From IMG/VR virus record IMGVR_UViG_2909272501_000001: a DNA stretch of 24,470 nucleotides; one strand, 5' to 3'. The notes below the pieces were generated by a model. The model searched no databases, was not told the origin of the DNA, and was given only the letters and a program-made list of their open reading frames with translations. This stretch comes from a virus. Lineage: Duplodnaviria; Heunggongvirae; Uroviricota; Caudoviricetes. Positions 3,364 to 24,470 of this stretch are shown piece after piece. How positions within the stretch are numbered: the stretch's first letter is position 1; each line of letters opens with the position of its first letter. The translations under genes were made by a program, and so were the position numbers.

Positions 3364-3377
3364 GGTGTTGTTCTCCT

Positions 3378-5161: not shown

Positions 5162-5424
5162 GCGTCGTACCCCCGTTTGCGTCCGGCAATGCGTCCGGCC
5201 ATCCATGCGGTGACTTCAGAGTGCAGCCAGGCCACATTTTTACCGCCAAGACTCACCTGCGGCGGAAATTCCCCCTTACGGATGAGTTCGTAGATGGTCG
5301 AGCGTGACAGGCCGCACAGGTGCATCACTTCCGGAAGACGCAAAAAACGCTCCTGTGTGATGTCCGGCAGCGGCATCAGTGGCGTCACAGGGGCAGGAGA
5401 CGGGGAAGAAAAAACAGCTTGCAT
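5158..5424 (-). CDS. AlpA/Vis-like small DNA-binding regulator (88 aa)
   Basis: Motif ...[29 protein letters not shown]... is typical of the AlpA/excisionase-like HTH family. RBS GAGG 8 nt upstream of the ATG at 5424. Same position and length as what I recall as P4 orf88 (vis). Confidence 0.65.
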
Positions 5425-5702
5425 CGGGCTACCTCGTTAATGTCCATACAGCACCGGATAAGTCCGTCCGGCTTCGGGTAGCGCTTTATTTTGTGAATAT
5501 TTTTGGCAGACGCAACAGGGGGGATTTGTTCCGGCAGCCTTACAATGGCTGTGTGTTTTTTGCACATCAGCGCCAGATAGCTTTAAAACGCTCTGGAAGG
5601 AGCTGGAAAAAATTATAGTGAAATACAAATTGTTTTTTCTTATTTATTTCAGTTAATTAATAAAAATAAAAAGTAATAAACAGCACAAAAAGTCCATGAA
5701 CG

Positions 5703-5806
5703 GGTGAACAGTGGTGAACAGACGGTGAACAGTCATTACTGCGATTGTTCACCCTTTAACTTACTGTATTACTTATCTTTTTTCTTATGGTGAACAGAGG
5801 TGAACA
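5703..5806. repeat. ori-like iteron cluster: six copies of GGTGAACA/TGTTCACC
   Basis: Octamers at 5703-5710, 5713-5720, 5724-5731, 5746-5753 (inverted), 5789-5796, 5799-5806, inside an AT-rich intergenic region ~4.8 kb from the crr-like repeats. P4 ori1 lies about 4.5 kb from crr and carries the same octamer (established knowledge). Confidence 0.65.
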
Positions 5807-5885
5807 GTAAAATATAAAAAAACAAACAGTAAGCCGGTTTTTCCTGCGACCTTTTCCTGGCTTGCCGGTCTGAGGATGAGTCTCC

Positions 5886-5903
5886 TGTGTCAGGGCTGGC
5901 ACA
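5886..5903 (+). promoter_or_regulatory. TGT-N12-ACA dyad; candidate Ogr/Delta-type activator site of the late promoter upstream of sid
   Basis: TGT (5886-5888), 12 nt, ACA (5901-5903), located ~75-90 bp upstream of the sid ATG. P2/P4 late promoters carry this dyad upstream of the -35 region (established knowledge). Confidence 0.4.
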
Positions 5904-5975
5904 TCTGCAATGCGTCGTGTTGTTGTCCGGTGTACGTCACAATTTTCTCAACCTGAAGTGACGAGGAGCCGGAAA

Positions 5976-6710
5976 ATGTCTGACAACACCATCCCTGAAT
6001 ATCTGCAACCCGCACTGGCACAACTGGAAAAGGCCAGAGCCGCCCACCTTGAGAACGCCCGCCTGATGGATGAGACCGTCACGGCCATTGAACGGGCAGA
6101 GCAGGAAAAAAATGCGCTGACGCAGGCCGACGGAAACGACGCTGACGACTGGCGCACGGCCTTTCGTGCAGCCGGTGGTGTCCTGAGCGACGAGCTGAAA
6201 CAGCGCCACATTGAGCGCGTGGCACGCCGGGAGCTGGTACAGGAATATGACAATCTGGCCGTGGTGCTGAATTTTGAACGCGAACGCCTGAAAGGGGCGT
6301 GTGACAGCACGGCCACCGCCTACCGGAAGGCACATCATCACCTTCTGAGTCTGTATGCAGAGCATGAGCTGGAACACGCCCTGAATGAAACCTGTGAGGC
6401 GCTTGTCCGGGCAATGCATCTGAGCATTCTGGTACAGGAAAATCCGCTCGCCAACACCACCGGGCATCAGGGCTACGTCGCACCCGATAAAGCTGTCATG
6501 CAGCAGGTGAAATCATCGCTGGAACAGAAAATAAAACAGATGCAAATCAGCCTCACCGGCGAGCCGGTTCTCCGGCTGACCGGACTGTCAGCGGCAACAC
6601 TTCCGCACATGGATTATGAGGTGGCAGGCACACCGGCACAGCGCAAGGTGTGGCAGGACAAAATAGACCAGCAGGGAGCAGAGCTTAAGGCCAGAGGACT
6701 GCTGTCATGA
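5976..6710 (+). CDS. sid: Sid, capsid size determination (external scaffold) protein
   Basis: 244 aa from the ATG at 5976 preceded by RBS GAGGAG (track ORF starts earlier at 5910). Length matches recalled P4 Sid. Followed by delta and psu in P4 order. Stop overlaps the delta start (ATGA). Confidence 0.85.
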   Translation: MSDNTIPEYLQPALAQLEKARAAHLENARLMDETVTAIERAEQEKNALTQADGNDADDWRTAFRAAGGVLSDELKQRHIERVARRELVQEYDNLAVVLNFERERLKGACDSTATAYRKAHHHLLSLYAEHELEHALNETCEALVRAMHLSILVQENPLANTTGHQGYVAPDKAVMQQVKSSLEQKIKQMQISLTGEPVLRLTGLSAATLPHMDYEVAGTPAQRKVWQDKIDQQGAELKARGLLS

Positions 6711-7207
6711 TTTACTGCCCGTCGTGTGGACATGTTGCTCACACCCGTCGCGCACATTTCATGGACGATGGCACCAAGATAATGATTGCACAGTGCCGGA
6801 ATATTTATTGCTCTGCGACATTTGAAGCGAGTGAAAGCTTTTTCTCTGACTGTAAAGATTCAGGAATGGAATACATTTCAGGCAAACAGAGATACCGCGA
6901 TTCACTGACGTCAGCCTCCGGCAGTATGAAACGCCCGAAAAGAATGCTTGTTACCGGATATTGTTGTCGGAGATGTAAAGGCCTTGCACTGTCAAGAACA
7001 TCGCGGCGTCTGTCTCAGGAAGTCACCGAGCGTTTTTATGTGTGCACGGATCCGGGCTGTGGTCTGGTGTTTAAAACGCTTCAGACCATCAACCGCTTCA
7101 TTGTCCGCCCGGTCACGCCGGACGAACTGGCAGAAAGCCTGCATGAAAAACAGGAACTGCCGCCAGTACGCTTAAAAACACAATCATATTCGCTGCGTCT
7201 GGAATGA
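6707..7207 (+). CDS. delta: Delta, Ogr-family zinc-finger late transcription activator (tandem Ogr-like domains)
   Basis: 166 aa. Two Cys4 Ogr-type motifs: CPSCGH...CRNIYCSATF and CCRRCKG...CTDPGCGLVF. Confidence 0.85.
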   Translation: MIYCPSCGHVAHTRRAHFMDDGTKIMIAQCRNIYCSATFEASESFFSDCKDSGMEYISGKQRYRDSLTSASGSMKRPKRMLVTGYCCRRCKGLALSRTSRRLSQEVTERFYVCTDPGCGLVFKTLQTINRFIVRPVTPDELAESLHEKQELPPVRLKTQSYSLRLE

Positions 7208-7280
7208 GGGCTGCCGGTTAACACCGGCCGTCGCCGCACACCGTATTTTTATTCTTCAGCATGATGAGAAAGAGATAACG

Positions 7281-7853
7281 ATGGAAAGCACAGCCTTACA
7301 GCAGGCCTTTGACACCTGTCAGAATAACAAAGCAGCATGGCTGCAACGCAAAAATGAGCTGGCAGCGGCCAAACAGGAATATCTGCGGCTTCTGTCAGGA
7401 GAAGGCAGAAACGTCAGCCGCCTGGACGAATTACGCAATATTATCGAAGTCAGAAAATGGCAGGTGAATCAGGCCGCCGGTCGTTATATTCGTTCGCATG
7501 AAGCCGTTCAGCACATCAGCATCCGCGACCGGCTGAATGATTTTATGCAGCAGCACGGCACAGCACTGGCGGCGGCACTGGCACCGGAGCTGATGGGCTA
7601 CAGTGAGCTGACGGCCATTGCCCGAAACTGTGCCATACAGCGTGCCACAGATGCCCTGCGTGAAGCCCTTCTGTCCTGGCTTGCGAAGGGGGAAAAAATT
7701 AATTATTCCGCACAGGATAGCGACATTTTAACGACCATCGGATTCAGGCCTGACGCGGCTTCGGTGGATGACAGCCGTGAAAAATTCACCCCTGCGCAGA
7801 ACATGATTTTTTCGCGTAAAAGTGCGCAACTGGCATCACGTCAGTCTGTGTAA
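7281..7853 (+). CDS. psu: Psu, polarity suppression / capsid decoration protein
   Basis: 190 aa, N-terminus MESTALQQAFDTCQNNKAAWLQRKNELAAA..., last gene of the sid-delta-psu operon. Confidence 0.85.
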   Translation: MESTALQQAFDTCQNNKAAWLQRKNELAAAKQEYLRLLSGEGRNVSRLDELRNIIEVRKWQVNQAAGRYIRSHEAVQHISIRDRLNDFMQQHGTALAAALAPELMGYSELTAIARNCAIQRATDALREALLSWLAKGEKINYSAQDSDILTTIGFRPDAASVDDSREKFTPAQNMIFSRKSAQLASRQSV

Positions 7854-7888
7854 AATTCCCCGAAAATCCGCCCGTTTTTACTGAAAAA

Positions 7889-7972
7889 AGCCATGCATCG
7901 ATAAGGTGCATGGCTTTGCATGCGTTTCCCTGCCTCATTTTCTGCAGACCGCGCCATTCCCGGCGCGGTCTG
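7889..7972 (+). other. Two strong hairpins after psu (7889-7915, 9-bp stem; 7945-7972, 11-bp perfect stem); possible terminator and/or packaging-region structure
   Basis: AGCCATGCA...TGCATGGCT and CAGACCGCGCC...GGCGCGGTCTG inverted repeats. Only the first is followed by a weak T-rich tract. Confidence 0.3.
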
Positions 7973-8017
7973 AGCGTGTCAGTGCAACTGCATTAAAACC
8001 GCCCCGCAAAGCGGGCG

Positions 8018-8036
8018 GGCGTGGCGGGGGGAGCAT
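8018..8036. other. cos-like site (candidate cohesive-end sequence)
   Basis: GGCGTGGCGGGGGGAGCAT matches 15 of 19 positions of the P2/P4 cohesive end as I recall it (GGCGAGGCGGGGAAAGCAC). It sits right after psu, where cos lies in P4, next to a GC-rich imperfect palindrome (7999-8019). Confidence 0.35.
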
Positions 8037-8118
8037 TGCGCGCTAAGGCTGATATTATAATTTTCTTTAATTCTATTTGGTATTTTGGCTTTATTCGTCA
8101 GAAGGAACGTTTAGAAAT

Positions 8119-8146
8119 AGACCACTACAATGGATTGTAGCGGTCT
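8119..8146 (-). terminator. Hairpin terminator candidate ending the int-RT-partner operon
   Basis: 12-bp inverted repeat AGACCACTACAA/TTGTAGCGGTCT (one G-U-compatible mismatch), 4-nt loop, ~10 nt downstream of the partner gene stop, followed by a modest T-rich tract on the minus strand. Confidence 0.4.
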
Positions 8147-8155
8147 GCATGATAT

Positions 8156-8896
8156 CTAGCGTTGCATTTCAGTTACTATGAAATTTTCTTCTGTAATAGA
8201 ATTCATTATCTCAAAGTACAATTCTTCAGGTTGAATAAACGCCAACTCTTTGCAAAGGTTGACAATGGTATCACTATAAGTGATACCCATCCGAGGATTG
8301 AAAAGCTCAAATCTCTTGATGTTTCTTTTGTTTTTTGAGTAAAAGTTTAAAGTGAAATATATTAGCACCTGTCTAAGATCGTAAACACTAAACTTCCTAT
8401 CTCCTGATTTTATTTCCACAAGAACATTTGAATAATAAATATCGCCATATGAATTATTTATTACTCCGCATCCATCGAATTGTGGAGACACTTCAATTTG
8501 GTTTTCCATTCCATATCGAGACAAAATGTTTCTTGCTATTTCCCTTATGGCATTGTACTCAACCATGCTTAAGGGTAGCTTGAAGTTAGAACCGTAAGCG
8601 AACCGCTGTAGATATTCTTTTGTTTTTTCAAAAACAACCTGAAAATCAGCATTATGGAAGATATCATGTGCTGAAAGAATATTTCTGTCTAACGAATCAT
8701 TCTGTATTGCCCTATATAAATTAAATGCGCACTCATTAACAAAGACGTTATTTGACCTATTAGCGCAGTCATCTAGAGGAGGATAAACGTCCTCGATGAG
8801 ACTGCCGTTAATGATGCGTATGAAATTATTAGCATTTGGAAGCAATTGATTCCAAAATGAAGTGAATTTTCGAGAAAACGTTAATTCAGATATCAT
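8156..8896 (-). CDS. Hypothetical 246-aa protein, partner of the reverse transcriptase; possible nuclease-like effector
   Basis: ATG overlaps the RT stop (ATGA at 8893-8896), with RBS GAGGA inside the RT 3' end. Very AT-rich. Segment GDIYYSNVLVEIKSG could be a D...ExK (PD-(D/E)xK-like) core, but this is unverified. Confidence 0.75.
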   Translation of the reverse strand: MISELTFSRKFTSFWNQLLPNANNFIRIINGSLIEDVYPPLDDCANRSNNVFVNECAFNLYRAIQNDSLDRNILSAHDIFHNADFQVVFEKTKEYLQRFAYGSNFKLPLSMVEYNAIREIARNILSRYGMENQIEVSPQFDGCGVINNSYGDIYYSNVLVEIKSGDRKFSVYDLRQVLIYFTLNFYSKNKRNIKRFELFNPRMGITYSDTIVNLCKELAFIQPEELYFEIMNSITEENFIVTEMQR

Positions 8897-10521
8897 AGCG
8901 CATCCTCAAGATTTCTTGCGGTATGCCTTTTACTTGCCCAATCCCTGTAAATCACCTCTACAAAGTTGAATGTTTTCTTATTATGCTCTCTCCAGTGCCG
9001 TCCTTCATCACCTAAGATGTAACTGGAAACGATCAATAGTCTTCTCTGCAACGGATGCATTGCAGAGAAATTTTTTTTGATATCAGAAAGCCATGCGTAA
9101 GAATTAATTTTTGCCATTGACTGTGTAACTATGTTCTTGACTAAGATGCTTTCTGGATTGTTATTGTATATTTCACTAAGGATTAGGGTGGATTTTTCTG
9201 AATTTTCTTTTGAGAGCATTCGGGCTACATAGGCTAAGTTGAGCTCAGTACTCAAAATATATGAATCTTGTTTAATTAGTGCAGTTATTTTATCAAGAAT
9301 AATATCTTTGGTTTCTGTGCTTAATTTTTGCCAGTTGGAGTTAGCTACTTGAATTATAGTTGTAAATATTGGATATAACTCATGCAAGTTATTAAACATT
9401 ACTTTGAAAGCACTACTTATTATTTCATCTGATGTTGCTGAGAATGCCTTTATCAAATGCTTGCTAAAAGATTGGTTAATTTTTGATTTTTGTAACTCAC
9501 TACTCAGCATAGCTAACAAGTCAAAATCTTTTAAAGATTCCTTTATCTCTTCATATTCCTCTATCGCATTTGCTGAGTAAGGATCGAATCTTATAGGAAG
9601 ACTCATAAATTTAGCCTTCATAGGAGATTCTTCATCTTCATCATTACCATGCAACTTAGCTTTAGTTACTGAAAGGAACTCTTCTTTAGTAACAATATTG
9701 GTTTTTTGTTTCTGTAAAGTTAGCCCTTCATTTTCCATCAGTTTTTTACTAAGCAAAGTTAAAATCTTATGAGCATCCTCTCTAGAGTTACAAAAAATAA
9801 CAAAGTCGTCGACATAACGCTTATAGTTGATTCTATTCATAGACAATAATTTATCAATAGAATCTAGAGCTAGTTCTGCTAATATTCTAGAGGCAGGACA
9901 TCCAACTGGTACTCCATATGATTTTGTTTCACTAAATGTCTGTAGTAATTTCTTGATTTTCCCAGAGTAATCTTTATTGGGGTCGACTCTATCTAACGCA
10001 TTTTCTAAACGGTGGTGATAAATACGCGGATAGAAATCTGCTATATCGCATGTAAGTACATACTTTATTTCATCGTTAGAACATTCAGAGATACTGTCTT
10101 CTTGATATTTTCTCCAAGAGATCTCTTTATCAAAAAGAGAACCATCAGCAAGGTTTGGTTTAAAGCGATATGAATAAACCTGCGTTTTAGTAGATCTATT
10201 CCTTTCAATATCATCAGCGATTTTTAAAACTAACCCAAGAAAAAAAGCATTCCAGAATGGATCAATTTGGGTCGCCCACCTGTAACCATAATAACCAATA
10301 CTTGAAAAGCTATTAATTATGTTTGGTGGAATCTCGATCCTTTTATTTTCAAAGTCATTAAATGTTTGCATTAATGCAGTTTTTACTTTCTCCTTATCAT
10401 CTTCAAATAACCGACTTTCAAATGGGTAAGGGAAAATATCTGTATCGCCGTGCTTTATAATATTTTCCAATGCAAGCTCAAAGCAATTTTCTAGTTTACT
10501 ACTATCAAACTCGTTACTCAT
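8893..10521 (-). CDS. Reverse transcriptase, 542 aa, with ~230-aa alpha-helical C-terminal extension; UG/Abi-like defence-associated RT candidate
   Basis: RT motifs in canonical order: LTCDIADFYPRIYHHRL (motif A-like), SYGVPVGCPASRILAELAL (motif B'-like), KRYVDDFVIF (YVDD catalytic motif C), NEGLTLQKQKTNIV (motif D/E-like). RBS AAGGAGA; start overlaps the int stop by 8 nt. No retron-type VTG motif seen. Confidence 0.85.
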   Translation of the reverse strand: MSNEFDSSKLENCFELALENIIKHGDTDIFPYPFESRLFEDDKEKVKTALMQTFNDFENKRIEIPPNIINSFSSIGYYGYRWATQIDPFWNAFFLGLVLKIADDIERNRSTKTQVYSYRFKPNLADGSLFDKEISWRKYQEDSISECSNDEIKYVLTCDIADFYPRIYHHRLENALDRVDPNKDYSGKIKKLLQTFSETKSYGVPVGCPASRILAELALDSIDKLLSMNRINYKRYVDDFVIFCNSREDAHKILTLLSKKLMENEGLTLQKQKTNIVTKEEFLSVTKAKLHGNDEDEESPMKAKFMSLPIRFDPYSANAIEEYEEIKESLKDFDLLAMLSSELQKSKINQSFSKHLIKAFSATSDEIISSAFKVMFNNLHELYPIFTTIIQVANSNWQKLSTETKDIILDKITALIKQDSYILSTELNLAYVARMLSKENSEKSTLILSEIYNNNPESILVKNIVTQSMAKINSYAWLSDIKKNFSAMHPLQRRLLIVSSYILGDEGRHWREHNKKTFNFVEVIYRDWASKRHTARNLEDAL

Positions 10522-11698
10522 TCACATTCTCCTTAATAAAAATATAATCTGAATACCACTGCATCATATCACGGCGTTTATCAATATATTGAGCATGATT
10601 ATACGTACCTCTAATATTATTCTTATCTATATGAGCAAGCTGTATTTCTATCCAAGCCGAATCATATCCTTTTTCGTGGAGGATAGTAGATAAGGAATGT
10701 CGAAATCCATGACCAGTAAGTTTTCCACCATAACCAATACGCTTGATAACTTGGTTAATACTCGCCTCACTCATAGGCTTGTTCGGATCGTTCCGCCCCG
10801 GAAAAACATAACTATACTTCCCTGTCATCATCTTGAGTTCATTTAGCAAATCTAACGCTTGAGTCGACAAAGGCACAAGGTGTGATCTGCGCATTTTCAT
10901 CCTTTCAGCAGGAATTTCCCAAATAGCGTTATCTAAATCAAATTCTGACCATAATGCCGCACGTAATTCGATGGTTCTAACACCTGTAATCATGAGCAAT
11001 TTCGTGGCAATCAGGACAAGCCGACTTCCGGTATATCCGTTTAAGGCGCGAAGAAAATCAGGTATCTCATTAGCCTTTAAGAACGGGAAATGATTTGATT
11101 GGTGTACATTGAGGGCGCTTGAAAGATCCGCAGCAGGGTTAAACTCAGCCCTTCCAGTAGCAATGGCATAGCGGAAAACTTCTGAGCATCGCTGCCGAAC
11201 TTTGCGCATTTTTTCTAATGCACCGCGCTTTTCGATTTTACGCAGCACATTAAGCAGTTCTAGCGGTTTAATCTCTCCCACTGGCCTTGTTCCCACATAA
11301 GGAAAAATGTCGTTCTTAAACGCTTCCATGATGTCTGATGCATATCCCGCCGACCATTTGGTAGACTTCTGTTGATGCCACTCTCTGGCTATCTTTTCGA
11401 AGGCGTTCTCTGACTCTGTTTGCAGAGCCAGCTTTTGCTCTTTTCGAACCTCACTAGGGTTCTTTCCTTCTGCCACAAGTTTTCGAGCTTCATCACGACG
11501 GGAACGAGCATCAGCAAGAGTGATCGTTGGGTAAACACCAAGCGAGATCATTTTGGGTTTACCGGCATAGCGATAACGAAATCGCCAGCTTTTACTTCCA
11601 TTTGGCTCTACAAGTAAAGACAACCCTTGCCCATCCCCAAGTGTATAGGCTTTAGCTTCAGGTTTAGCACGGCGAATCTGCATATCATTTAGGGGCAT
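10514..11698 (-). CDS. int: P4-type (DUF4102-family) tyrosine integrase
   Basis: 394 aa. N-terminal ...RRAKPEAKAYTLGDGQGLSLLVEPNGSKSWRFRYRYAGKPKMISLGVYP... is characteristic of P4/CP4-57-type integrases. Catalytic R...HxxR...H...Y residues (GVRTIEL, GHGFRHSLS, LAHIDKN..RGTYNHAQY). Confidence 0.88.
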   Translation of the reverse strand: MPLNDMQIRRAKPEAKAYTLGDGQGLSLLVEPNGSKSWRFRYRYAGKPKMISLGVYPTITLADARSRRDEARKLVAEGKNPSEVRKEQKLALQTESENAFEKIAREWHQQKSTKWSAGYASDIMEAFKNDIFPYVGTRPVGEIKPLELLNVLRKIEKRGALEKMRKVRQRCSEVFRYAIATGRAEFNPAADLSSALNVHQSNHFPFLKANEIPDFLRALNGYTGSRLVLIATKLLMITGVRTIELRAALWSEFDLDNAIWEIPAERMKMRRSHLVPLSTQALDLLNELKMMTGKYSYVFPGRNDPNKPMSEASINQVIKRIGYGGKLTGHGFRHSLSTILHEKGYDSAWIEIQLAHIDKNNIRGTYNHAQYIDKRRDMMQWYSDYIFIKENVNE

Positions 11699-11861: not shown

Positions 11862-11881
11862 ATGGTGCCGATAATAGGAGT
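11862..11881. repeat. Right copy of the imperfect direct repeat; candidate att core shared by both elements
   Basis: ATGGTGCCGATAATAGGAGT, see 537-556. The first 9 nt (TGGTGCCGA) resemble the reverse complement of a tRNA 3' end, but no T-arm follows. Confidence 0.5.
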
Positions 11882-12023
11882 AAAACACTCGATTAATCTC
11901 GTGTTAATGCCATCACCTACGACCATTACTAATTGATTGAATCTGATAGAAAAATTATCATTTTCTATACCTTACAATCAATTTACACATTACAAACGCT
12001 CCGACACTTTAGCCGGAGATTTT

Positions 12024-13381: not shown

Positions 13382-14059
13382 CTATTGTTTAAATACTGGC
13401 GTTACAACGTCTTGCCCTGGGCTTTTTTGATTTTTCTGTTCTGTTGTATTTACCTGCATTTTAACCTGTCCCCCTACAGATTTATTTGGTGCTGTTTTTA
13501 CAGCAATAGCATTAGTGGTGGCCTTAGAGACAAGACGAATTTGCTCAAAATCAAGAGTAAACAATAAGCTTTCGCTTGCTTCTTCTTCGTAAGACATGCC
13601 AACTAACACAACGTTGTCATAATTTTTTAACTCAGTGACAAGTAGGAAAGGTTGGCGACTGTCCATCAACTGATTTAGGTATTCAAGCATAAGCATACGT
13701 CGATTGCCGTTAATTCCCGCATTCTTAATCATATCGGGATTGAGTTTCAATACGGTTTCAGAGATACGCCCCTGTAATGTGAACTTGTTATTCCGTATTT
13801 GAACATGATCACTAACTTCTGATCCTGATTCGACGGCATAGCTTGTAACGTCTGCATTTCGGCTAACTTTCGTCGATTCCACGTTATCAAATGATAATGC
13901 CCGGTAGTCATTGTAAGCAGCATTTGCACCACTGCCGAGGTTAGAGGTAATAATCGCAAAGCCGTTACCCCCTTTAGTTGTTCTACCGTTGCTATCGTTG
14001 CTTGTGCTGTTGATTTTCGCCTCAGTCGGGCGACCAATGGTTAACGGACCCATTGCCAT
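13382..14059 (-). CDS. Hypothetical protein, 225 aa (possible virion-associated protein)
   Basis: ORF with RBS AAGGA; last gene of a co-oriented leftward block that includes capsid-like candidates. No recognisable motif. Confidence 0.45.
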   Translation of the reverse strand: MAMGPLTIGRPTEAKINSTSNDSNGRTTKGGNGFAIITSNLGSGANAAYNDYRALSFDNVESTKVSRNADVTSYAVESGSEVSDHVQIRNNKFTLQGRISETVLKLNPDMIKNAGINGNRRMLMLEYLNQLMDSRQPFLLVTELKNYDNVVLVGMSYEEEASESLLFTLDFEQIRLVSKATTNAIAVKTAPNKSVGGQVKMQVNTTEQKNQKSPGQDVVTPVFKQ

Positions 14060-14106
14060 AATTTGTAATCCTTATTTAAGGGGGCTAAACAGCCCCACAG
14101 TGATGA

Positions 14107-15948
14107 TTAATAGGTTGACCCGCCTGACATAACACCCAGCGTTAATAGCTTGCTAAACTCAGCGGAGGATGCCTTTGATTTGAAGTCGATAAATTCGCTC
14201 AATCGTCCGGTGTCTGATTCGATAGTTAGCGGCACTTCTGCATTTACTTGTAATTCTGGATTGAAGTTAATAACAGGTGCAAAGGTGTAAGAAGGAGTCT
14301 TGATAGCTTGTTGTGCTGCACTCTGTTTCAGATTTGCAATGTTTTGTCCTTCGAGAGTGTATTGATTTACAGCCTGCGCCCCGCCTACCGTTTCTTCTGG
14401 CGTAAACCAGCCTTTAATAGTGTTAAACAGGGAATTGCTGTTATCTGGCTTAGTTGTTCCGGTGCCAGCGCCTTTATATTGATCAGGAACGAGATTAGAA
14501 AGATTCTGTTTCATCCCTTCGTTAGACAGTGGCGGTGCATCACCTAAATTCTTCTGAATAGCTTCCGTCTTCTCGTCGTTTTTCATCAGCCAGTTGATTG
14601 CTTTCATTACGGCGTTAACCAATCCGCCGATAGCCTCGCCTAATTTGGTAAACATTGGCAGCATTGCAACCATACTCTTTTTGAACTCTTCAATCACAGC
14701 AGGATCGAGAGATTTCATAAAGCCATCAACAAAGGCGATCCCTTGTGAGTCAGAAAGCCCACTAAGTGCATTATTCAGTTCACGGAATTTAATAACGCTT
14801 TCCTGTTGTGCCTGTGTTACCCAGCGCCCTGATTCTCGTTGTTCTCGTGCTGATTGTTCCACTTCTTTAGCGGAGCGTGTCCAGTATTTAGAGGTGAGCA
14901 TCAAATCATCAGCCAGATCTTCCAGACGACTACCGATTTGTGCATCTGAATAGCCTTTAGCTACCATTCCCTGAACTGCTTTACTAACCAGACCAGCCGG
15001 ATTATCAGCAAAGTCTTTTAGATCCTTTTTAGTTAGGAATCCTTCATTCATTAAAGTATTGATGCCGCTATCGCCGCCCTTCCATTCTCCTTTACCAGTT
15101 TTCTTATCAACTACATATTCAGCTTCATCATAAGATTTGGTTGCACGTTCACGCACATCTTTCATCTGATCCAGATACTTACGTTTACCTTGTTCGCCCA
15201 TCATTGAATCAACGCCGTTTTTATACGCCCATTGTTCAACATCGTTCATCTGGTTAACGTCTACACCGCCCAGCTTCGCACGGCTATACAATTCACCCAG
15301 CGTTTCAGCATTCGCAAAGCTGTTAGTAACAAATTCAGAGGCTTTGCTCATAGCCATATACGTAGCGCCAGCGCCTAAGCCACCCAGCATAACAGCCGCA
15401 GCACCGCCGCCAATACTCCCGCTACCCTTAACAGGTGCATAGGCTTTAGCGTGAGCGTTACGATTGCCATTAATCTTACGTTGTTGCTGTTGTAGGCGTT
15501 TCATTTGGCTATTCATACGTGCCAGACTAATAGCGCCTCTTTCATATTGGAGGGCAATTTCTCTAGCCTGTGCAATAGCTTTATATTGTTCCGCTACAGA
15601 AAGACGGTGCATTGCACTAATGCTTGATCCAACGTCTAAAAGCTTTAATTCTGCCTTCTCTTTGCGTGCTGCCAGGGCTTTTTGTTCTCTTGCAACTACA
15701 CGTTGAGCGGCTAATTGTGCTTTAGCATTGGCTTTATCTGCCTGTGCTTGCTTTTTAGCAATATCGTCTACGTCTTTTTTTGCTTTAGCGGTTGATTGTT
15801 TATGTGTCTTAACACGCAATTCTATATCTTTCACCGCCGCCATTTGTTTACGAAGTTTTTCTACTTCTGCTTTTGCTTTCTCTAATGATGGTCGATCAAC
15901 CTGGAAGGTGACAACGTTTGATAAGCGGCTGACGTTAAGTTCTAACAT
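14107..15948 (-). CDS. Large coiled-coil / Gly-rich protein, 613 aa; tape-measure-like or other minor virion structural protein candidate
   Basis: N-terminal ~170 aa is Lys/Ala/Gln-rich with heptad-like periodicity, followed by a Gly-rich hydrophobic segment (GSIGGGAAAVMLGGLGAGATYMAM) and then a globular region. RBS AGGGA. Confidence 0.55.
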   Translation of the reverse strand: MLELNVSRLSNVVTFQVDRPSLEKAKAEVEKLRKQMAAVKDIELRVKTHKQSTAKAKKDVDDIAKKQAQADKANAKAQLAAQRVVAREQKALAARKEKAELKLLDVGSSISAMHRLSVAEQYKAIAQAREIALQYERGAISLARMNSQMKRLQQQQRKINGNRNAHAKAYAPVKGSGSIGGGAAAVMLGGLGAGATYMAMSKASEFVTNSFANAETLGELYSRAKLGGVDVNQMNDVEQWAYKNGVDSMMGEQGKRKYLDQMKDVRERATKSYDEAEYVVDKKTGKGEWKGGDSGINTLMNEGFLTKKDLKDFADNPAGLVSKAVQGMVAKGYSDAQIGSRLEDLADDLMLTSKYWTRSAKEVEQSAREQRESGRWVTQAQQESVIKFRELNNALSGLSDSQGIAFVDGFMKSLDPAVIEEFKKSMVAMLPMFTKLGEAIGGLVNAVMKAINWLMKNDEKTEAIQKNLGDAPPLSNEGMKQNLSNLVPDQYKGAGTGTTKPDNSNSLFNTIKGWFTPEETVGGAQAVNQYTLEGQNIANLKQSAAQQAIKTPSYTFAPVINFNPELQVNAEVPLTIESDTGRLSEFIDFKSKASSAEFSKLLTLGVMSGGSTY

Positions 15949-15982
15949 GCTAATTGTTTCCCTGTATTATGATTGTTGTTTA

Positions 15983-16180
15983 TTATTGTTTTTTAGAGCA
16001 ATAGTATTGAATTGCTTCGAAAGTGCTGCATCCAGTCTGAAAGACACGCTGACGCACATTATTTGCATCAATTTCTAAAAGGCGGCAAAGCGCCGATGTG
16101 TTTATAACTGATTCCTCGCTAATAGCTGCCAGTTCTTTTACAGATTTAAGAATTAATGCCTGTGAATTTTCTGCGTTCAT
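15983..16180 (-). CDS. Small hypothetical protein, 65 aa
   Basis: ORF between the 343-aa and 613-aa genes; no motif recognised. Confidence 0.3.
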   Translation of the reverse strand: MNAENSQALILKSVKELAAISEESVINTSALCRLLEIDANNVRQRVFQTGCSTFEAIQYYCSKKQ

Positions 16181-16335
16181 TGGTTTTCTCTCACATATAT
16201 ATTTTTATTTGGGTTTGTAGACAGTAGAAAAAAAATAAGGGCAAGAGACAGCGCATATTTTGCTTATATGATTATCCCTTACCCTTATTGCCCCGATTAT
16301 TTCCAGACGATGGGGAATCGTCTATTAACGCTTTA

Positions 16336-17367
16336 TTACGCAGCAGATCCGAAGATGATAGCTTGCGGAATGTTGTTTACTGGCAGATAAGATGTCTCAG
16401 TAACCACAGATGGGAATTGGAATTCATCCTTGATTAGATATTGGTGATGTAACACGGCATCTTGACCTAACTCAGCATGACGCACACCAACGCCGCTATG
16501 AAGCTGATAGCACTGTGCCGCTTTATCCATTACTGGAACAATTGCGAAACCGTTCTCTCCGATGTGAGCAACAATCTCAGGAAACATTGACACATCAATA
16601 ACAGTGATCCCACCAATCTGGAAAGAGTCATAGGCTGGGTTAGAATCAACCATACGGGTAAACAGGGCCGTAGCACTCGCATCACCTGCATATTTCACCA
16701 TGTCACTGATCAGCGGGTTAGATGACAAACCATCAGCAGCAGCGCCAGCAGCAAAGATAATTACACCAGTTCGCTTTGCAGCAAGACCAGACCCCAGCTT
16801 TTCACTCTGTAAGCGCACCGCTTTACGAATAGCAAGGAACGGGTTAACAGTAGTCGATGCAAAGTCGATAGCGGGTACCGTGGTTTTAGCCTGACCGTCG
16901 AGGAAGTCGAGATCACCTTGTCCGGCATATTCAGATTCAACTTTCAGGCCCAGCAGCGCGGTAATCAGATCCACTTCAACACGGTTTGCGTGTGAACGGT
17001 AATGTGCCTCAGAGAAATCATTAACCGCTACCAGCATAGCATCAGAACGGTTTGGATATTGGCGGCTGTATTGTTCCAGGTCACGAGAAGTAACAGCGTT
17101 AATACTGCCGACGTGTTTCATCTGGAAAAGTTTGTTTGACCATTCCTGACGTTTAGAGGCGTTCCAGTCGCTTTGAGCGTAAGGCGAGGTTTCCCCAGCT
17201 ACCTGCACAAACTGATCAATCAGGTCGGTAAGAAGAATGCTGTTTTCTGTATGATATTGCACATCGAACAGATCGAGATTAGTAATCAGGGTATTAAGTG
17301 CATTCTCATAAGCAAATGGAGTTACTACCGCAGTATTAACGCCAAAATATGTTGATAAATCATTCAT
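16336..17367 (-). CDS. Hypothetical protein, 343 aa; major-capsid-like candidate (speculative)
   Basis: Size and position directly after a ~125-aa decoration-like gene resemble the lambda D/E arrangement. No direct sequence similarity to lambda gpE that I can confirm by eye. Confidence 0.5.
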   Translation of the reverse strand: MNDLSTYFGVNTAVVTPFAYENALNTLITNLDLFDVQYHTENSILLTDLIDQFVQVAGETSPYAQSDWNASKRQEWSNKLFQMKHVGSINAVTSRDLEQYSRQYPNRSDAMLVAVNDFSEAHYRSHANRVEVDLITALLGLKVESEYAGQGDLDFLDGQAKTTVPAIDFASTTVNPFLAIRKAVRLQSEKLGSGLAAKRTGVIIFAAGAAADGLSSNPLISDMVKYAGDASATALFTRMVDSNPAYDSFQIGGITVIDVSMFPEIVAHIGENGFAIVPVMDKAAQCYQLHSGVGVRHAELGQDAVLHHQYLIKDEFQFPSVVTETSYLPVNNIPQAIIFGSAA

Positions 17368-17381
17368 TATTATTTTCCTTG

Positions 17382-17765
17382 TTAAGTCGTAGGGATCGCA
17401 AGTTCTTCATAACCAGCAATTACAAAGCCGAGAGATTGCAGTTTTGCAATAACACTTGCCTTTTCCATACTGTTAAATTCAATCCCATCTTCAGCCAGAA
17501 TAACGAAAGTAGGATGTGCAACCACTACGCTTTCCTGTCCTTCATAAGCCGGTTCAACCACTACGTGAGCAATATCAGAAGCGGTTGTTGCTTTGGTGCC
17601 ATCGGCTTTCAGCAAAGCCCCGACAATAAGATCGTCAGTGAGAGGTGAAGCCAGTTTGACGAGGCGATCTTGCAGCACTGGATCAGCAGCGTAAGCTACT
17701 ACCTTACAGCGTGAACGGGAATTATCCGCATTCACTGCTTTTAATTTTCCATATGGGTTAGCCAT
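17382..17765 (-). CDS. Hypothetical protein, 127 aa; head-decoration-like candidate (speculative)
   Basis: Small Ala/Val-rich beta-type protein starting MANPYGKLKAVNADN..., immediately upstream of the 343-aa gene. Confidence 0.45.
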   Translation of the reverse strand: MANPYGKLKAVNADNSRSRCKVVAYAADPVLQDRLVKLASPLTDDLIVGALLKADGTKATTASDIAHVVVEPAYEGQESVVVAHPTFVILAEDGIEFNSMEKASVIAKLQSLGFVIAGYEELAIPTT

Positions 17766-20026: not shown

Positions 20027-20596
20027 TTAAAAGGGTAGTGAATCATATATTGTGCTCTCACTTTTGAGATCAATTATCAAAGAGTCAAAATCATTTTCAC
20101 AAAGATAGATATTCTTTGAATCTAATGCTCGTTTTACAAAATCTTCTGTTTCTTCGTGCGGTGGTTTCTTCTTATCAAGGGAAAGAAGCCAAGTAAAAAT
20201 TTCGGGCCGCTCAGGGAACTCTGGCTCTTGTGTTTCTTCTTCAACGATGATTTCGGAAACATTCAATATTTCATTAGATTCGTCTTCTTTCTCAGAAGGA
20301 TCAGGTAGTGATGATTCTCCTTTTGGAATATCAAGCACTCGATAAAGGTTAGAGCTTCCTGGTCGTGCATCTTTTATAATTAATCCCATTTCGAGCAATT
20401 TCTTAACCCTTTCTTCTGCTGCTCTTGGTGTTATGCCAAAAACATCGCCTATCTTAGCGTAAGAGGGAAATGCACGATCAAACCCTCTCAGATAGCAGTA
20501 AAGGTTTTTAGCACTATCTGTAAATTTATGCCCGTTTACTTGGCTTATTTTTAGAATCCACATAGGAACTTTTACAAATTGTTCTTCATTAATCAT
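20027..20596 (-). CDS. Winged-helix DNA-binding protein, 189 aa from the ATG at 20596; replication initiator / replisome-organiser-like candidate
   Basis: RBS AAGGAGA 5 nt before the ATG. Segment NLYCYLRGFDRAFPSYAKIGDVFGITPRAAEERVKKLLEMGLIIK resembles wHTH initiator N-domains. Acidic C-terminal half. Same operon as an RHH protein and downstream of the iteron cluster. Confidence 0.5.
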   Translation of the reverse strand: MINEEQFVKVPMWILKISQVNGHKFTDSAKNLYCYLRGFDRAFPSYAKIGDVFGITPRAAEERVKKLLEMGLIIKDARPGSSNLYRVLDIPKGESSLPDPSEKEDESNEILNVSEIIVEEETQEPEFPERPEIFTWLLSLDKKKPPHEETEDFVKRALDSKNIYLCENDFDSLIIDLKSESTIYDSLPF

Positions 20597-20649
20597 TAAA
20601 AATCTCCTTGATGTAATCACGCTCTACGGCGCTACTATGGTGATAAAAA

Positions 20650-21040: not shown

Positions 21041-21883
21041 TAATTAACCTCCTATTCTATTTAGTTAAAAGAAATAGACACCTTGCAAGCCTTGGGCTTC
21101 AAAGTGCGATGCATTGGTTTAATTATTTAAAGGATAAGAATGTTTTCCTGCCCCTAATATTACTTTACCACGACTAAAGGCTTTTGTCAACCCCCCAGCC
21201 ATAAAAATATTGATCATTTTCAGTGTGTTATGATTTTTCTTAGCAATTCGTGCTCTTACGAATACTCCAATTCTTCATTATTGTCTAAAACGCTCTAAAA
21301 CGCGTTCTAACGAGGTTTTGATAAAAACAATACATTCCCTTATGTAATGGCTGTTTAGCTCGCCTACGGTTTGATTTAAGCGGTAGAAACTCATCTACTA
21401 CCTAACATCTTTAAACCATATTTTTCTTTTTTGTCTGTTTGATGGTTGATCTATAGTTATGCGTTAGCATCCCCAAAGGGGTAACGCTACCCTAATTGCA
21501 TTCGCAAGAACATTGCACAAGAAATTTATTTTAGATGATTGATGATCGTTAGATGGTAGTTAGTTAATTATCGTTCTGCGCACAGCGCAAGACTATTTAG
21601 CCTTACGCAAGCCGTAGGCTATTTGCACATAGTAGATTACATATTCGTTGTGAGCGGAAAGCGAACATAGATCTACTAACTAACATTAACAAACAAAAAC
21701 TATGTGTTATGAGAAGTATCAGTCTAACTGACTAACACTCTAACTTGTGCAAGGTTCTGGCGAATGCCAATAGATTAAGGGATAGTCGAAGACTCCCTAA
21801 CGGGTATCCCTATAATTATTCTTTAAAGATAAAAGAATTTATAAAAGATAATTTAATTGTAGTTTGATAGTTGATCTAATAGG

Positions 21884-22021
21884 TAACAAAATTCTGTAGG
21901 GGTGGCTAACAGTTTTCTGTGGGGGTGTCTAACATAATTCTGTTAGGGTTGGGGTAACAGTTTTCTGTTAGGGTGCATATTTCTTTAAAAGTTAAGGATA
22001 ACAGAATTCTGTGGGGGTAGC
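21884..22021. repeat. Iteron cluster: five ~23-bp direct repeats, consensus TAACA(n)3TTCTGT(n)GGGGT
   Basis: Copies begin at 21884, 21907, 21930, 21955 (tandem, 23-25 bp spacing) and 21999 (after an AT-rich spacer), upstream of the operon containing the RHH and wHTH genes. Confidence 0.6.
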
Positions 22022-22854
22022 TCACAGTGACCTACCGTTACATCCATCACATAACATCTGTGCAATGATCTTCTTATAATCAGTAAAAGTCTTTCTTGCT
22101 ATCAAAAATTAAACATCTAAAACAAGCTTAAATTCAAGATTAATTGATGATTAATCCCTGTGTAATTCCATACTAAAAAATCCAAGAAAAATGGCTTCAA
22201 AATGCAATTCTTACTTTCTTCACTTTTGCGTCATCATCAGCAAAGCCTTATGTTATGCGGCATATAGCGCATCACTGCAAAATTGTTGCTCAATAAACGT
22301 TCTATCATTTGTTGAACAAGTTCTTTCACGTGTTGAAAATTTATGTTTAAATTTGCTTTCAATCTTTAATGTGCAATCACTATCAACATAAAAATAAAAA
22401 ATCTTCTATTATATTTCATAGCATACAAAAGTCAATAGAAGCCCTCTCGTGCTCCTACGTAAAAAATCCACCATTTTTCCCCTGATACATCAACTCAAGG
22501 CGTTCTATGTGTTCCTTAGTGCATATTACGATTATTATGTTAAATGTATTTTGGCCTATATTTTGACCTGCACCCGCATAAACACTGGTTTCATCGCTTA
22601 CAGCCCTTGTGAGACGTGGTGCTGTTTCTAGCATCTGATCCGACATAAAACCGATCATTCTCGTGTTTAGTGAAAGTTTAGTGAGAGACATTACAGAAAG
22701 GCTTTCTGTGTAATGATTTAATAGGTAAAAACGATGTTGATTACGCAAGAAAATTCCTTGCTGATATTTGGGGATTCTGGATTTTCCAGATCGGGGGGCG
22801 CTGAAAATCGCGTTAAGCACCTCTCGCAATCTAGCCATAAGGGAGGGGATTCAT

Positions 22855-22929
22855 ATGTATTTAGATGTATTTATAGCTATTTATGGCTATTTATTTTTTA
22901 TTTACCTTTATTTGAAAACAACCTTATAA
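22855..22929 (+). CDS. Candidate 24-aa hydrophobic peptide MYLDVFIAIYGYLFFIYLYLKTTL
   Basis: ATG 5 nt after a strong SD (AAGGGAGGGG). Very short, so a coding call is tentative. Confidence 0.25.
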   Translation: MYLDVFIAIYGYLFFIYLYLKTTL

Positions 22930-23146
22930 ATCAATAAGATACAGAACAACCTGTTTATATTTTAATCACTTAAATTACGTTTAATACCCTTAAATCACCT
23001 GAAAATAACCTTAAATACCCCAATAATTAATTTTAACGATTCCTGTGCTCTCTTCTACATTGCAAAAAGGCAAAAAAAGCCCATAGAGGCACAAAAATAT
23101 TAAAACCAATAACTCAATAATGCCTCTACAAGAGCTTCTCTAACTG

Positions 23147-23698
23147 TTATTTTTGATTGAGCTTACATCGATCCCATTGTTCTGTCGTTCTTGTGATACG
23201 ATCGCTTATTGCAAAATTTAATAGCCAAGAATCATAAGCATAAACCTTGCTTTTATCATCTGCCATCATAAACTTGCCGTTAGCATTCAGTTTTGGCGAT
23301 ATCAAATATGTTCCATTTAATCTGTTAGCCTTGAAGCTATCTGCATATAAAGTTACTTGTGCGTATCCCTGAACACGTAATGCCCCTAAACGTCCGTTTT
23401 CGATTGATGCAATAGAGTATTGGCAAAGATAATTTTTGGCAGCAGGAGTCGTTTTCACTCCTTCAGTTTTTCGTGAATTATTTGATTGCGAGCTTCGAAT
23501 AGAGGATGAAGGATAAGAGTATGAATGATTTTTATAAGATGAAGGGGCATAAGAGCCAATCCGGCACGTCTTACCAACAGCTATACACGAGTTACCACAA
23601 GGTATTCCTTTTTTGCAGTTTTTAGCAACTGCGGTAGAAGTTCCCCCTACAAACAACGTTGTAAAAATCATCATCCTCACAAATGCAGACCTGCGCAT
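23147..23698 (-). CDS. Secreted Cys-rich protein, 183 aa
   Basis: N-terminal signal-peptide-like segment (MRRSAFVRMMIFTTLFVGGTSTAVA), then a 4-Cys cluster (CKKGIPCGNSCIAVGKTC), a Ser/Tyr-rich linker and a C-terminal domain. Confidence 0.55.
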   Translation of the reverse strand: MRRSAFVRMMIFTTLFVGGTSTAVAKNCKKGIPCGNSCIAVGKTCRIGSYAPSSYKNHSYSYPSSSIRSSQSNNSRKTEGVKTTPAAKNYLCQYSIASIENGRLGALRVQGYAQVTLYADSFKANRLNGTYLISPKLNANGKFMMADDKSKVYAYDSWLLNFAISDRITRTTEQWDRCKLNQK

Positions 23699-24092
23699 AT
23701 AACCTCCCTTTTTAGATTATTCTTATGCTATACACTTGCTTAAAAAAATAAAAGTGCCCTCTAACCTTTATCGTTCTCCATCACAATTTGAGAAGTAAGA
23801 GCAGCAACCTCAAGCGATGATCACGTTTGCGCCGATTTCAGAGAAAAAGACAGTAACTGAACTCACTATGAAGGCTAAACGTATCTTTACACTTGATGAA
23901 AACGTTCAAAAAACAACCTAACCCCAAAATTCAACAAATAACAACATATTGTTTTTAAAAGAAAATTAAATCTACATCAAATATTGGTTGACGTAGATTG
24001 AGGTGAATAGTAGACTATTAGGGTAAATTGCCATTCTTGCAACATCATTTAATGCATGTTCTAATCCTCCTATCCCAAAACCGGAGGAAGTT

Positions 24093-24251
24093 ATGCATTT
24101 ACTTTCAAAACATCTTCACACTATTCACTTTCTCGTTATTGATGTATTCATTGTGGCTATTAGTTACCGCATTTGCATCGCTTCCAGTGAAGAGATGGAC
24201 GCTGTTGCAATTATTGCTCAAGCAATGGCGATGTTAACTAAACGACTTTAA
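24093..24251 (+). CDS. Candidate small protein, 52 aa, hydrophobic N-terminal half
   Basis: ATG 5 nt after SD GGAGGAAG; below the 60-aa cut-off of the ORF track. Possible -35/-10 pair (TTGACG, 17 nt, TAGACT) at 23979-24007. Confidence 0.3.
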   Translation: MHLLSKHLHTIHFLVIDVFIVAISYRICIASSEEMDAVAIIAQAMAMLTKRL

Positions 24252-24320
24252 TAATTTCACTATCAGGCGCATAAACACATCTTTGATCGCTGGATGTGTT
24301 ATGCGCCTACTGGTGATTCA

Positions 24321-24470
24321 ATCCTTAAGCCATTTCAACTCACTAAGGAGTTTTCTTTCTTCGTTCTCTCTCTGTTTACGCTCTAGCCAGGCTTTTCCTT
24401 CTGGCGTAGACAGGAACTTACGAGCGTGAATCTTGCGGTTATTACGTTTGATAGCTGCAATATTTTTCAT
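24321..24470 (-). CDS. Partial small basic ORF running off the right window edge
   Basis: Open frame ...MKNIAAIKRNNRKIHARKFLSTPEGKAWLERKQRENEERKLLSELKWLKD with stop at 24318-24320; the true start may lie beyond the window. Confidence 0.2.

Follow-up and report, generated by a model that had tools for sequence, protein, structure and literature searches.

Do two small genes that lie back to back near the end of a phage-derived element belong together, and what might either of them do for its carrier? The question is raised by the DNA analysed here, a stretch of 24,470 nucleotides (the window, to which all positions refer) that is recorded as a Caudoviricetes virus in IMG/VR (IMGVR_UViG_2909272501_000001). 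A reading made from the letters alone (hereafter the sequence-only reading) had singled out positions 23147–24251 as a divergent pair consisting of a secreted, Cys-rich protein of 183 amino acids (aa) and a 52-aa open reading frame (ORF) on the opposite strand. Both ORFs were recovered at these places, the 183-aa gene at 23147–23698 on the minus strand (RefSeq WP_001323651.1, hypothetical protein) and the 52-aa ORF at 24093–24251 on the plus strand (WP_000550449.1, hypothetical protein); the claim that the latter had been missed does not hold, as RefSeq already lists it. The explanation that accounts best for the locus as a whole, and to which we would give an even chance, is that of two independent modules, one encoding an exported moron-like protein and the other a type I toxin-like peptide.

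The two genes diverge across 394 bp, and a homology breakpoint lies between them at 23812–23817. In the window (configuration A), a segment at 22323–23079 is followed by a cassette with the 183-aa gene (23080–23811), a block with the 52-aa ORF (23812–24319), a 50-aa ORF and finally the tRNA gene thrW. In Escherichia coli O104:H4 (configuration B), a serine-recombinase gene takes the place of 22323–23811, the 52-aa block is kept at 97.5% identity and the 183-aa gene is absent; the match to the window resumes at 23818. In strain 2013C-3513 (configuration C), segment 22370–23079 leads almost directly into the 50-aa ORF: the match ends at 23079 and resumes at 24320, and with the missing stretch 23080–24319 neither gene is present. 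The 183-aa family, in turn, was found in six other contexts without the 52-aa module. Stretch 23699–24470 is matched in 588 genomes, a count that includes genomes matching only the 50-aa ORF, versus 130 of 5426 complete E. coli genomes that carry a 183-aa-type gene. Given the breakpoint and the occurrence of each gene on its own, we concluded that the 183-aa gene and the 52-aa ORF are not a functional unit; their divergent arrangement is that of a cassette which landed next to a backbone module. The pairing proposed by the sequence-only reading thus stands as geometry and falls as function. A single divergent unit, for instance an exported effector with a membrane partner or regulator, would draw on the adjacency and divergent orientation of the genes over so short a distance and on their co-occurrence in the 78 E. 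coli genomes that contain the whole of 22800–24470. It is largely refuted, and in our view hardly tenable, in the light of the breakpoint, the recombinase alternative, the six contexts lacking the 52-aa module and the configuration lacking both genes. The 52-aa ORF would rather belong to a separate module, 23812–24319, which occurs on its own, with no 183-aa gene beside it, in other relatives of the element. Recombination-site repeats were looked for at the cassette junctions and not found.

The 183-aa protein begins with MRRSAFVRMMIFTTLFVGGTSTAVA/KNCKKGIPCGNSCIAVGKTCRIG, where the slash marks the predicted cleavage. Its signal peptide (residues 1–25; 23624–23698, minus strand, as are the other parts of the gene) comprises an n-region, MRRSAFVR, with three Arg, and an h-region, MMIFTTLFVGG, followed by TSTAVA/KN with an A-x-A (A-V-A) site for signal peptidase I. 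The h-region reaches a Kyte-Doolittle 10-mer maximum of 2.0, and residues 2–18 are helical in the AlphaFold2 model. This layout for Sec export and signal peptidase I cleavage recurs in all 28 aligned relatives; there is no lipobox, the residues before the first Cys being A-K-N. A 4-Cys module (residues 26–47; 23558–23623), a Ser/Tyr-rich linker (residues 48–85; 23444–23557) and an all-beta C-terminal domain (C-domain; residues 86–183; 23150–23443) follow. Cys residues occupy positions 28, 34, 38, 45, 92 and 178, and the 39 residues from 47 to 85 include 12 Ser (31%) and 4 Tyr (10%). The signal peptide, 4-Cys cluster and Ser/Tyr-rich linker named by the sequence-only reading are therefore all present, and the product bears, as far as its sequence can tell, every hallmark of a Sec-exported periplasmic protein. 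A Shine-Dalgarno (SD) sequence, GGGAGG, can be read 4 nt before the ATG (23703–23708), and a terminator-like hairpin with U-runs and the tail CUUUUUUUGCCUUUUUGC lies right after the stop codon (23062–23144, minus strand). This hairpin has a folding energy of −30.3 kcal/mol (z = −4.2), and none of 200 shuffled sequences folded as well.

A search of 5.8 billion proteins returned 68 relatives. Those of about 188 aa and 56–69% identity come from Enterobacter, Klebsiella, Citrobacter, Kosakonia, Serratia and other genera, with Morganella relatives at 33–37%, and all six Cys and a TEQW motif are invariant in the 28-sequence alignment. Codon comparison with five orthologues gave a whole-gene ratio of nonsynonymous to synonymous substitution rates (dN/dS) of 0.10–0.14 with synonymous sites near saturation. 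By region, the proportion of nonsynonymous differences (pN) was 0–0.11 in the Cys module, and dN/dS was 0.06–0.08 in the C-domain and 0.33–0.65 in the linker, values that argue for two constrained modules joined by a relaxed tether. To judge from these relatives and codon patterns, the 183-aa gene is real and under strong purifying selection.

The structure prediction suggested by the sequence-only reading supplied a confident fold for one of the two modules. AlphaFold2 with 28 sequences modelled residues 88–180 as an all-beta domain of seven strands with a predicted local distance difference test (pLDDT) of about 90, residues 1–84 being of low confidence. Cys92 is placed in the first strand and Cys178 in the last, which makes a closing disulfide plausible. 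For the Cys module, a run with 110 diverse sequences gave a short beta-hairpin at residues 32–39 (pLDDT about 85), after the signal-peptide helix 2–18.

An exhaustive phmmer search with the 183-aa protein against 1.84 billion cluster representatives (E ≤ 1e-3) revealed 254 matching representatives in three groups. Only a handful have the full architecture. About ten (175–350 aa) have the C-domain alone, placed directly after a signal peptide and followed by variable C-termini, one of them IalB-like. Most of the 254 carry the Cys module alone. Its spacing is CX5CX3CX6C, and the consensus [AQ][KR]NC[KR]KGxPCGN[ST]CI[SA]xxK[TV]C[RH][IV]G was found in 112 of the 113 module-only representatives examined. 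In those 112 sequences the first Cys lies at median residue 26, preceded by a hydrophobic stretch in 109, which places the module at the mature N-terminus, 2–3 residues past the cleavage site. The position-locked Cys module is thus found in more than 100 protein clusters, probably in about 200. Among the 113, the passengers recognised by Pfam were SH3_3 (17), SH3_4 (6), SNase (3), Ada-like (3), Excalibur (2), LRAT (1) and TonB_C (1). Named carriers include SH3-domain proteins of Vibrio and Oceanobacter and gp23 of Pseudoalteromonas phage C5a. The latter (2986–3411 in our comparison locus L017) combines a signal peptide, the 4-Cys module and an SH3 domain, and the module is thereby also found on phages of marine Gammaproteobacteria.

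The C-domain matches PHROG families 2578 and 14768, which have no assigned function, at 1e-17. All its fold matches are to uncharacterised proteins of phages, among them one with a putative-lipoprotein annotation, and it occurs in exported prophage proteins, including one of Klebsiella phage ST11-VIM1phi8.1, whose gene shares an accessory island with Arc and Bro-N genes. With Pfam and NCBIfam (E ≤ 1) and PADLOC, neither the two proteins nor the ORFs around them gave a match. Across Pfam, NCBIfam, PHROG and PADLOC the 183-aa protein matched no housekeeping family; such a match would have spoken against the sequence-only reading. Neither of its modules had a profile match among PDB sequences, the Cys-module model had no fold match in the PDB at all, and no paper on the two accessions or the Cys motif was found in the literature. 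Conserved, strongly constrained and without counterpart in Pfam, NCBIfam or the PDB, both modules are not previously described.

Morons are independent accessory units in phage-derived genomes and often serve superinfection exclusion (PMC3594210). The cassette at 23080–23811, about 730 bp between segment 22323–23079 and the block that starts at 23812, contains the 183-aa gene together with an SD and a terminator-like hairpin. Related thrW and glyU elements with conserved flanks either lack the cassette or have other DNA in its place, as expected of an insertion. The composition of the cassette does not stand out, the GC content being 0.36–0.41 across the gene and 0.30–0.41 in the surrounding element. 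Apart from this, the 183-aa gene behaves like a moron, a self-contained accessory unit passed from one phage-derived genome to another. For other genera and for E. coli elements integrated at glyU, homology to the window is limited to the gene (23147–23713), and the orthologue there opens the element on the side of the tRNA or core genes. In Klebsiella pneumoniae and Enterobacter ludwigii it is followed, at a distance of 27 bp, by a true SieB gene (PF14163, E = 4.6e-25); in E. coli, the E. cloacae complex and Serratia a secreted 165-aa protein is encoded downstream. That neighbour (6590–7087 in comparison locus L007, 6585–7082 in L012) has a signal peptide of its own, MKKLLIAFVVLTLPLLSFA/KG, and only a sub-threshold match to DUF6301, and may be a second exported accessory protein of the same operon. 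We also considered whether the 162-aa SieB and the 165-aa neighbour form one family and rejected this, the two being unrelated in comparison. The Morganella relative lies in a prophage beside glycosyltransferase genes and a Q antiterminator.

A phage-related accessory role of the 183-aa gene, as the sequence-only reading had suggested, fits this context, namely the SieB neighbour, the Morganella prophage and the presence of the C-domain in exported phage proteins. Superinfection exclusion in particular may be plausible, but only through guilt by association. We picture the product as exported by Sec and most likely cleaved after Ala25, its six invariant Cys most likely oxidised by DsbA in the periplasm to give three disulfides. 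The mature protein would then consist of the basic CX5CX3CX6C module, a fast-evolving, flexible Ser/Tyr-rich linker and an all-beta domain of about 95 aa closed by Cys92–Cys178. The Cys module might anchor the protein to an envelope component, with the linker as a tether and the beta domain free to bind a periplasmic or outer-membrane target. The anchor idea arises because the module keeps its place at the mature N-terminus whichever of many unrelated passenger domains follows, and because the layout parallels that of lipoproteins, with their lipid anchor, disordered linker and globular domain. The likeliest role would be an element-encoded envelope function that interferes with an incoming phage at adsorption or DNA entry, or else modifies the cell surface.

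How far does the evidence carry this proposal for the 183-aa protein? Envelope interference with incoming phage, or another surface modification that benefits the element, is suggested by context only, and we advance it tentatively, somewhat short of even confidence. Several observations weigh against it or against the moron-like reading of the gene. No known exclusion or defence family was matched by the protein in PADLOC, Pfam or PHROG, and Foldseek with the full model against the PDB gave no E-value better than 0.025; the matches listed were generic beta folds of the PH-like, LolB-like and RseB-like kinds, and none of them was a known exclusion protein or lysozyme inhibitor. The downstream partner of the orthologues varies (SieB in two genera, the 165-aa protein in three), and neither SieB nor any other conserved partner is present in this window. 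No convincing, consensus-like sigma-70 promoter for the 183-aa gene was found on the minus strand of 23699–23811. As for the anchor, its role is pure inference, and the model of the Cys module is only moderate (pLDDT of about 85 over some 10 residues). An exported accessory protein with no link to phage would explain part of the same data, be it an orphan immunity protein or inhibitor that counters a toxin or lytic enzyme which competing bacteria direct at the periplasm, or a factor of the lysogenic-conversion type that affects surface or fitness. A small, presumably disulfide-bonded, all-beta periplasmic protein on a genomic island suits such a role; in three genera its neighbour is another secreted protein and not SieB, the Cys module travels with SH3, SNase and LRAT/NlpC-type passengers that act on cell wall or nucleic acid, and one C-domain relative carries an IalB-like domain. 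We nevertheless find this alternative doubtful, considering that no known lysozyme or amidase inhibitor fold appears among the 50 best PDB matches listed, that toxin or secretion-system genes are lacking nearby, and that all located relatives of the protein reside in phage-derived elements. A broader idea, quite improbable in our estimate, is that the basic 4-Cys motif is a sorting or anchoring signal of the Gram-negative envelope not described before, a protein counterpart of the lipobox which would tie varied passenger domains, by way of a flexible linker, to one fixed envelope component, and that the 183-aa protein is one phage-element passenger of it.

For the 52-aa ORF, the strong SD and the hydrophobic N-terminal half noted in the sequence-only reading were both found: GGAGGA at 24083–24088 lies 4 nt before the ATG at 24093, and the best hydrophobic 19-residue window starts at residue 11 with a Kyte-Doolittle value of 2.11, within a predicted membrane segment at about residues 11–30. 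In these 2 kb, which 16 ORFs of 30 aa or more overlap, an ORF of this size is unremarkable; what speaks for it is conservation and regulatory RNA structure rather than length. The comparison draws on three diverged DNA versions with 4 distinct sequences. The reference is the thrW version, comprising the window and its O104 counterpart. A glyU version in ETEC4075, 2003-3014 and SCPM-O-B-8794 is 84–85% identical over the matched region and about 75% over the ORF. The U1 version, also at glyU, is about 73% identical in the block upstream and has no blastn match in the ORF region. The glyU version of ETEC4075 and its companions keeps the ATG, an SD and an open frame of 55 codons, with 58% amino-acid identity at about 25% nucleotide divergence (37 of 150 positions differ). 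In DNA searches with the 52-aa region no phage was hit, and among plasmid records only three Escherichia entries were, two of them chromosome-sized. We considered the small ORF of U1 as a homologue of the 52-aa protein and rejected it, as this hydrophobic ORF of about 64 aa has no BLASTP similarity.

The upstream region is where the versions agree best. The block at 23812–24034 (plus strand), which contains a promoter and a palindrome, is nearly invariant between thrW and glyU elements, the flanking genes being about 75–85% and the 52-aa ORF about 75% identical. A sigma-70-like promoter, TTGACG-17-TAGACT, lies at 23988–24016 on the plus strand and at the same position in all three diverged versions, with AATAAT and an upstream TG as the −10 region in U1. 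A 12-bp inverted repeat, AATCTACATCAA-N7-TTGACGTAGATT, overlaps the −35 hexamer (23969–23999). This palindrome (AATCTAC...GTAGATT), of which U1 keeps the outer arms with a different spacer, could be an operator. On the minus strand, where it folds at −12.5 kcal/mol (z = −6.2) and the hairpin is followed by a U-run, UUAAUUUUCUUUU, it could also serve as an intrinsic terminator. Promoter and palindrome explain the purpose of the block only partly. A structured small RNA in 23819–23968 was considered and rejected, since neither strand has a stable fold (z = −0.9 and +1.1), and Rfam gave no meaningful match in the block, the one chance-level hit (E = 0.64) lying outside it at 22311–22362. A 34-aa ORF is also found inside the block, at 23817–23921, with its first ATG lost in O104, and in other strains a serine-recombinase gene abuts the block.

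The feature that is most informative for the 52-aa ORF was missed in the sequence-only reading: a hairpin in the 5' untranslated region (5' UTR) that sequesters both the SD and the AUG and is kept by covariation. Within the 5' UTR of about 70 nt and the translation-initiation region (24021–24106, plus strand), an anti-SD, UCCUCC (24065–24070), pairs with the SD at 24083–24088, an upstream AUGCAU (24052–24057) pairs with the AUGCAU of the start codon (24093–24098), and the 5' end of the mRNA, GGGUAAAU, pairs with codons 3–5. The inner stem is formed by CCUCC/GGAGG in the window, CCCCCU/AGGGGG in ETEC4075 and CACUCC/GGAGUG in U1. RNAalifold identified three pairs with two-sided compensatory changes, one of which is a G-C to A-U swap in the pairing between the 5' end and codons 3–5. 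The stop codon is followed 6 nt later by a very stable hairpin (24257–24316; −32.4 kcal/mol with z = −6.4 on the plus strand, −28.8 kcal/mol with z = −4.9 on the minus strand), which separates the 52-aa ORF from the convergent 50-aa ORF and is probably the 3' end and stabiliser of both transcripts.

In type I toxin mRNAs, an anti-SD close by that sequesters the SD counts as a key determinant; such mRNAs are recognised by this sequestration, by 5'-end interactions and by strong 3' stem-loops (PMC8594479). The anti-SD, the 5'-end pairing and the 3' stem-loop of the 52-aa mRNA led us to read its product as a translationally gated small membrane peptide of the type I toxin kind; it is a hydrophobic peptide of fewer than 60 aa with a predicted membrane helix, encoded on an mRNA whose structure sequesters the SD. 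The mRNA would run from the conserved promoter to the strong 3' hairpin and would be translationally closed as transcribed, its SD and AUG paired in the 5' UTR hairpin. The predicted single-helix membrane peptide would most likely be type I toxin-like and membrane-damaging, and would be made only when the mRNA is refolded or processed. On the minus strand, a terminator-like hairpin (23999–23955) and one antisense promoter-like site (24237–24210) were detected, the promoter not being conserved. We know of no toxin to which the peptide has sequence similarity.

That the peptide works like a type I toxin is, on this analysis, close to an even call and perhaps just under it. On the other side of the balance, no conserved antisense promoter was found across the versions, U1 also lacks the minus-strand terminator, and no complementarity of at least 12 nt that could point to an antitoxin acting in trans was found nearby. 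The protein search returned only near-identical copies in the database, and a scan for the palindrome pattern in one genome per species gave two Escherichia loci and chance matches only, which restricts the family to Escherichia. Evidence for coding is weak (dN/dS 0.57, with 12, 10 and 15 differences at the three codon positions), the covariation is seen among 4 distinct sequences only, the fold z-scores of single sequences are modest (−1.7 to −2.2), and the U1 ORF has no detectable similarity to the 52-aa protein. Could the ORF then remain untranslated, or its peptide be irrelevant, with promoter, hairpins and block acting as a regulatory RNA or as a site in the element's DNA on which, for instance, a recombinase or repressor acts? 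The weak coding signal would be in line with this, as would the better conservation of the non-coding block than of the ORF, the unrelated ORF behind the same promoter in U1, and the recombinase gene abutting the block in other strains. However, the structure kept by compensatory changes pairs specifically the SD and the start codon, which is only sensible if translation matters; moreover, every version retains an SD and an ATG, the reading frame remains open, no Rfam family was found in the region, and the upstream block has no stable fold. We therefore regard this reading as unlikely. Many small membrane proteins of E. coli are regulators, and the peptide might likewise be made and be harmless, for example as a modulator of a transporter or sensor, a view with which the failure to find an antitoxin RNA agrees. 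It is fairly unlikely in our judgement, for the double lock on SD and AUG together with the 5'-end pairing is typical of genes that must never be made by accident (PMC8594479), and mobile elements are places where addiction and abortive-infection modules are common.

Both genes sit in a larger mobile setting. Stretch 22800–24470 is 100% identical to many E. coli chromosomes and is present in full in the 78 E. coli genomes mentioned above, and 30 genomes match the whole window over its full length. In strain AR436 this stretch ends about 600 bp from tRNA-Thr (thrW), adjoining proA and proB. The window is thus E. coli chromosome at the thrW tRNA site, occupied by two mobile elements in tandem, whose layout we took from the annotation of strain WWCOL-256 and from our own profile scans. 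A P4-like satellite (about 1030–11698) encodes a primase-helicase, an Icd-like gene, ogr/delta, Psu and an integrase. In its hotspot, beside the integrase, lies a DRT type 8 defence pair (8156–10521, minus strand), composed of a 542-aa reverse transcriptase (E = 4.9e-166 to Drt8) and a 246-aa partner (E = 5.5e-69 to the reverse transcriptase-associated PD-(D/E)xK model). A copy of the thrW 3' end (11863–11882, plus strand; 19 of 20 nt identical, 0 matches expected by chance) forms the far boundary of the second element and separates it from the satellite. In AR436 the left-hand neighbour is a different one, with IS1, a reverse transcriptase, a recombinase and a TIGR04141 protein.

The second element, about 13 kb long, phage-derived and integrative, extends from 11863 to the intact thrW about 600 bp past the end of the window. 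The phage-derived origin assumed in the sequence-only reading is borne out by its genes for a DUF6538-type tyrosine integrase, a Dit-like tail protein, a 613-aa tape-measure-like protein, a 343-aa weakly capsid-like protein and a RepO-like helix-turn-helix protein, and by its iterons. The structural-type genes occupy 13382–17765 on the minus strand (Dit-like, PF21821, 2e-27; tape-measure-like, phrog_16051, 3e-33; capsid-like, phrog_29, 1e-4, a weak match), and general profile scans of the window showed no terminase or portal among the genes of this element, which represents either an unusual, satellite-like set of genes or a prophage that has been strongly reduced. Downstream of the RepO-like gene (20027–20620) are five iteron-like repeats, TAACAnnnTTCTGTnGGGGT, at 21881–22026 with a spacing of 23–44 nt, from which the element probably replicates; at the corresponding place the O104 relative carries another set of iterons. 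The GC content is low throughout (0.30–0.41). The 183-aa gene and the 52-aa ORF both lie in the thrW-proximal part, beyond the iterons, and this end is a mosaic of exchangeable accessory modules.

Several further components of this end were recorded. Segment 22323–23079 is present in 428 E. coli genomes, mostly without annotation, and a 127-aa ORF in it (22455–22838) belongs to no family, matched nothing in phages and probably does not represent a gene. In other E. coli strains the slot 22323–23811 holds a gene for a serine recombinase of 183–185 aa on the opposite strand (2154–3000 in comparison locus L020; also L018 and L021), and glyU-integrated versions also have a YecR-family lipoprotein gene near the tRNA. 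A 41-nt stretch at 22558–22598 is 73% identical to 24251–24291, directly after the 52-aa ORF. No other piece of this end is as widespread as the highly basic 50-aa ORF (WP_000788776.1; 24318–24470, minus strand), which starts with MKNIAAIKRNNRKIHARKF and is found in configurations A, B and C, and at 93–98% identity also in genomes that match little or nothing else of 23699–24470.

Depending on the strain, the thrW-proximal hotspot holds a secreted protein, a serine recombinase, a YecR-like lipoprotein or a small peptide, and as it adjoins a P4-like satellite with DRT8 it is a reasonable place to seek new phage-host interference functions. The interest of the locus lies chiefly in two unmodelled domains and a covarying translational lock, without which these would be two more hypothetical island genes. 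The N-terminal Cys module recurs widely, and at a locked position, in the secreted proteins that Proteobacteria and their phages encode. The 52-aa ORF, whose SD and AUG are under a covarying lock, makes a good candidate for a type I-like toxin family as yet undescribed and confined to satellite-like elements of Escherichia.

Among described systems, the Cys module is reminiscent of Excalibur (PF05901), likewise a short Cys-containing module on secreted proteins, with passengers such as SNase common to both. Excalibur binds calcium through a DxDxDGxxCE motif. The 4-Cys module differs from it in its motif, in giving no profile match and in being locked to the mature N-terminus. SieB (PF14163) is encoded immediately downstream of the orthologue in two genera, but neither in this window nor in most of the other contexts, and it is a membrane-associated protein of another kind. 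T4 Sp (spackle), T5 Llp and Cor of phi80 and N15 are small exported envelope proteins of phage origin that act against incoming phage; Llp depends on a disulfide, and Llp and Cor are lipoproteins. The 183-aa protein shares size, export and phage origin with these, but has no sequence similarity to them and no significant PDB fold match, lacks a lipobox and consists of two modules joined by a long linker. HK97 gp15 (Cumby et al.) is an inner-membrane protein without sequence relation to the 183-aa protein. The cassette resembles phage morons of the HK97 gp15 type in being a single inserted gene with an SD and a terminator-like hairpin of its own, in its phage-derived carrier and in a product targeted to the envelope, whereas its GC content of about 37–41% is not distinct, no promoter was found for it and its carrier is satellite-like instead of a complete phage. 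The 52-aa ORF, finally, differs from type I systems in that no antitoxin RNA was found for it, and resembles them in the SD sequestered by an anti-SD, the pairing of the 5' end to the initiation region, the strong 3' stem-loop and the location on a mobile element; with tisB/istR-1, zorO/orzO, dinQ/agrB and hok/sok it also shares a hydrophobic single-helix peptide of fewer than 60 aa (PMC8594479, PMC3919570, PMC7708055).

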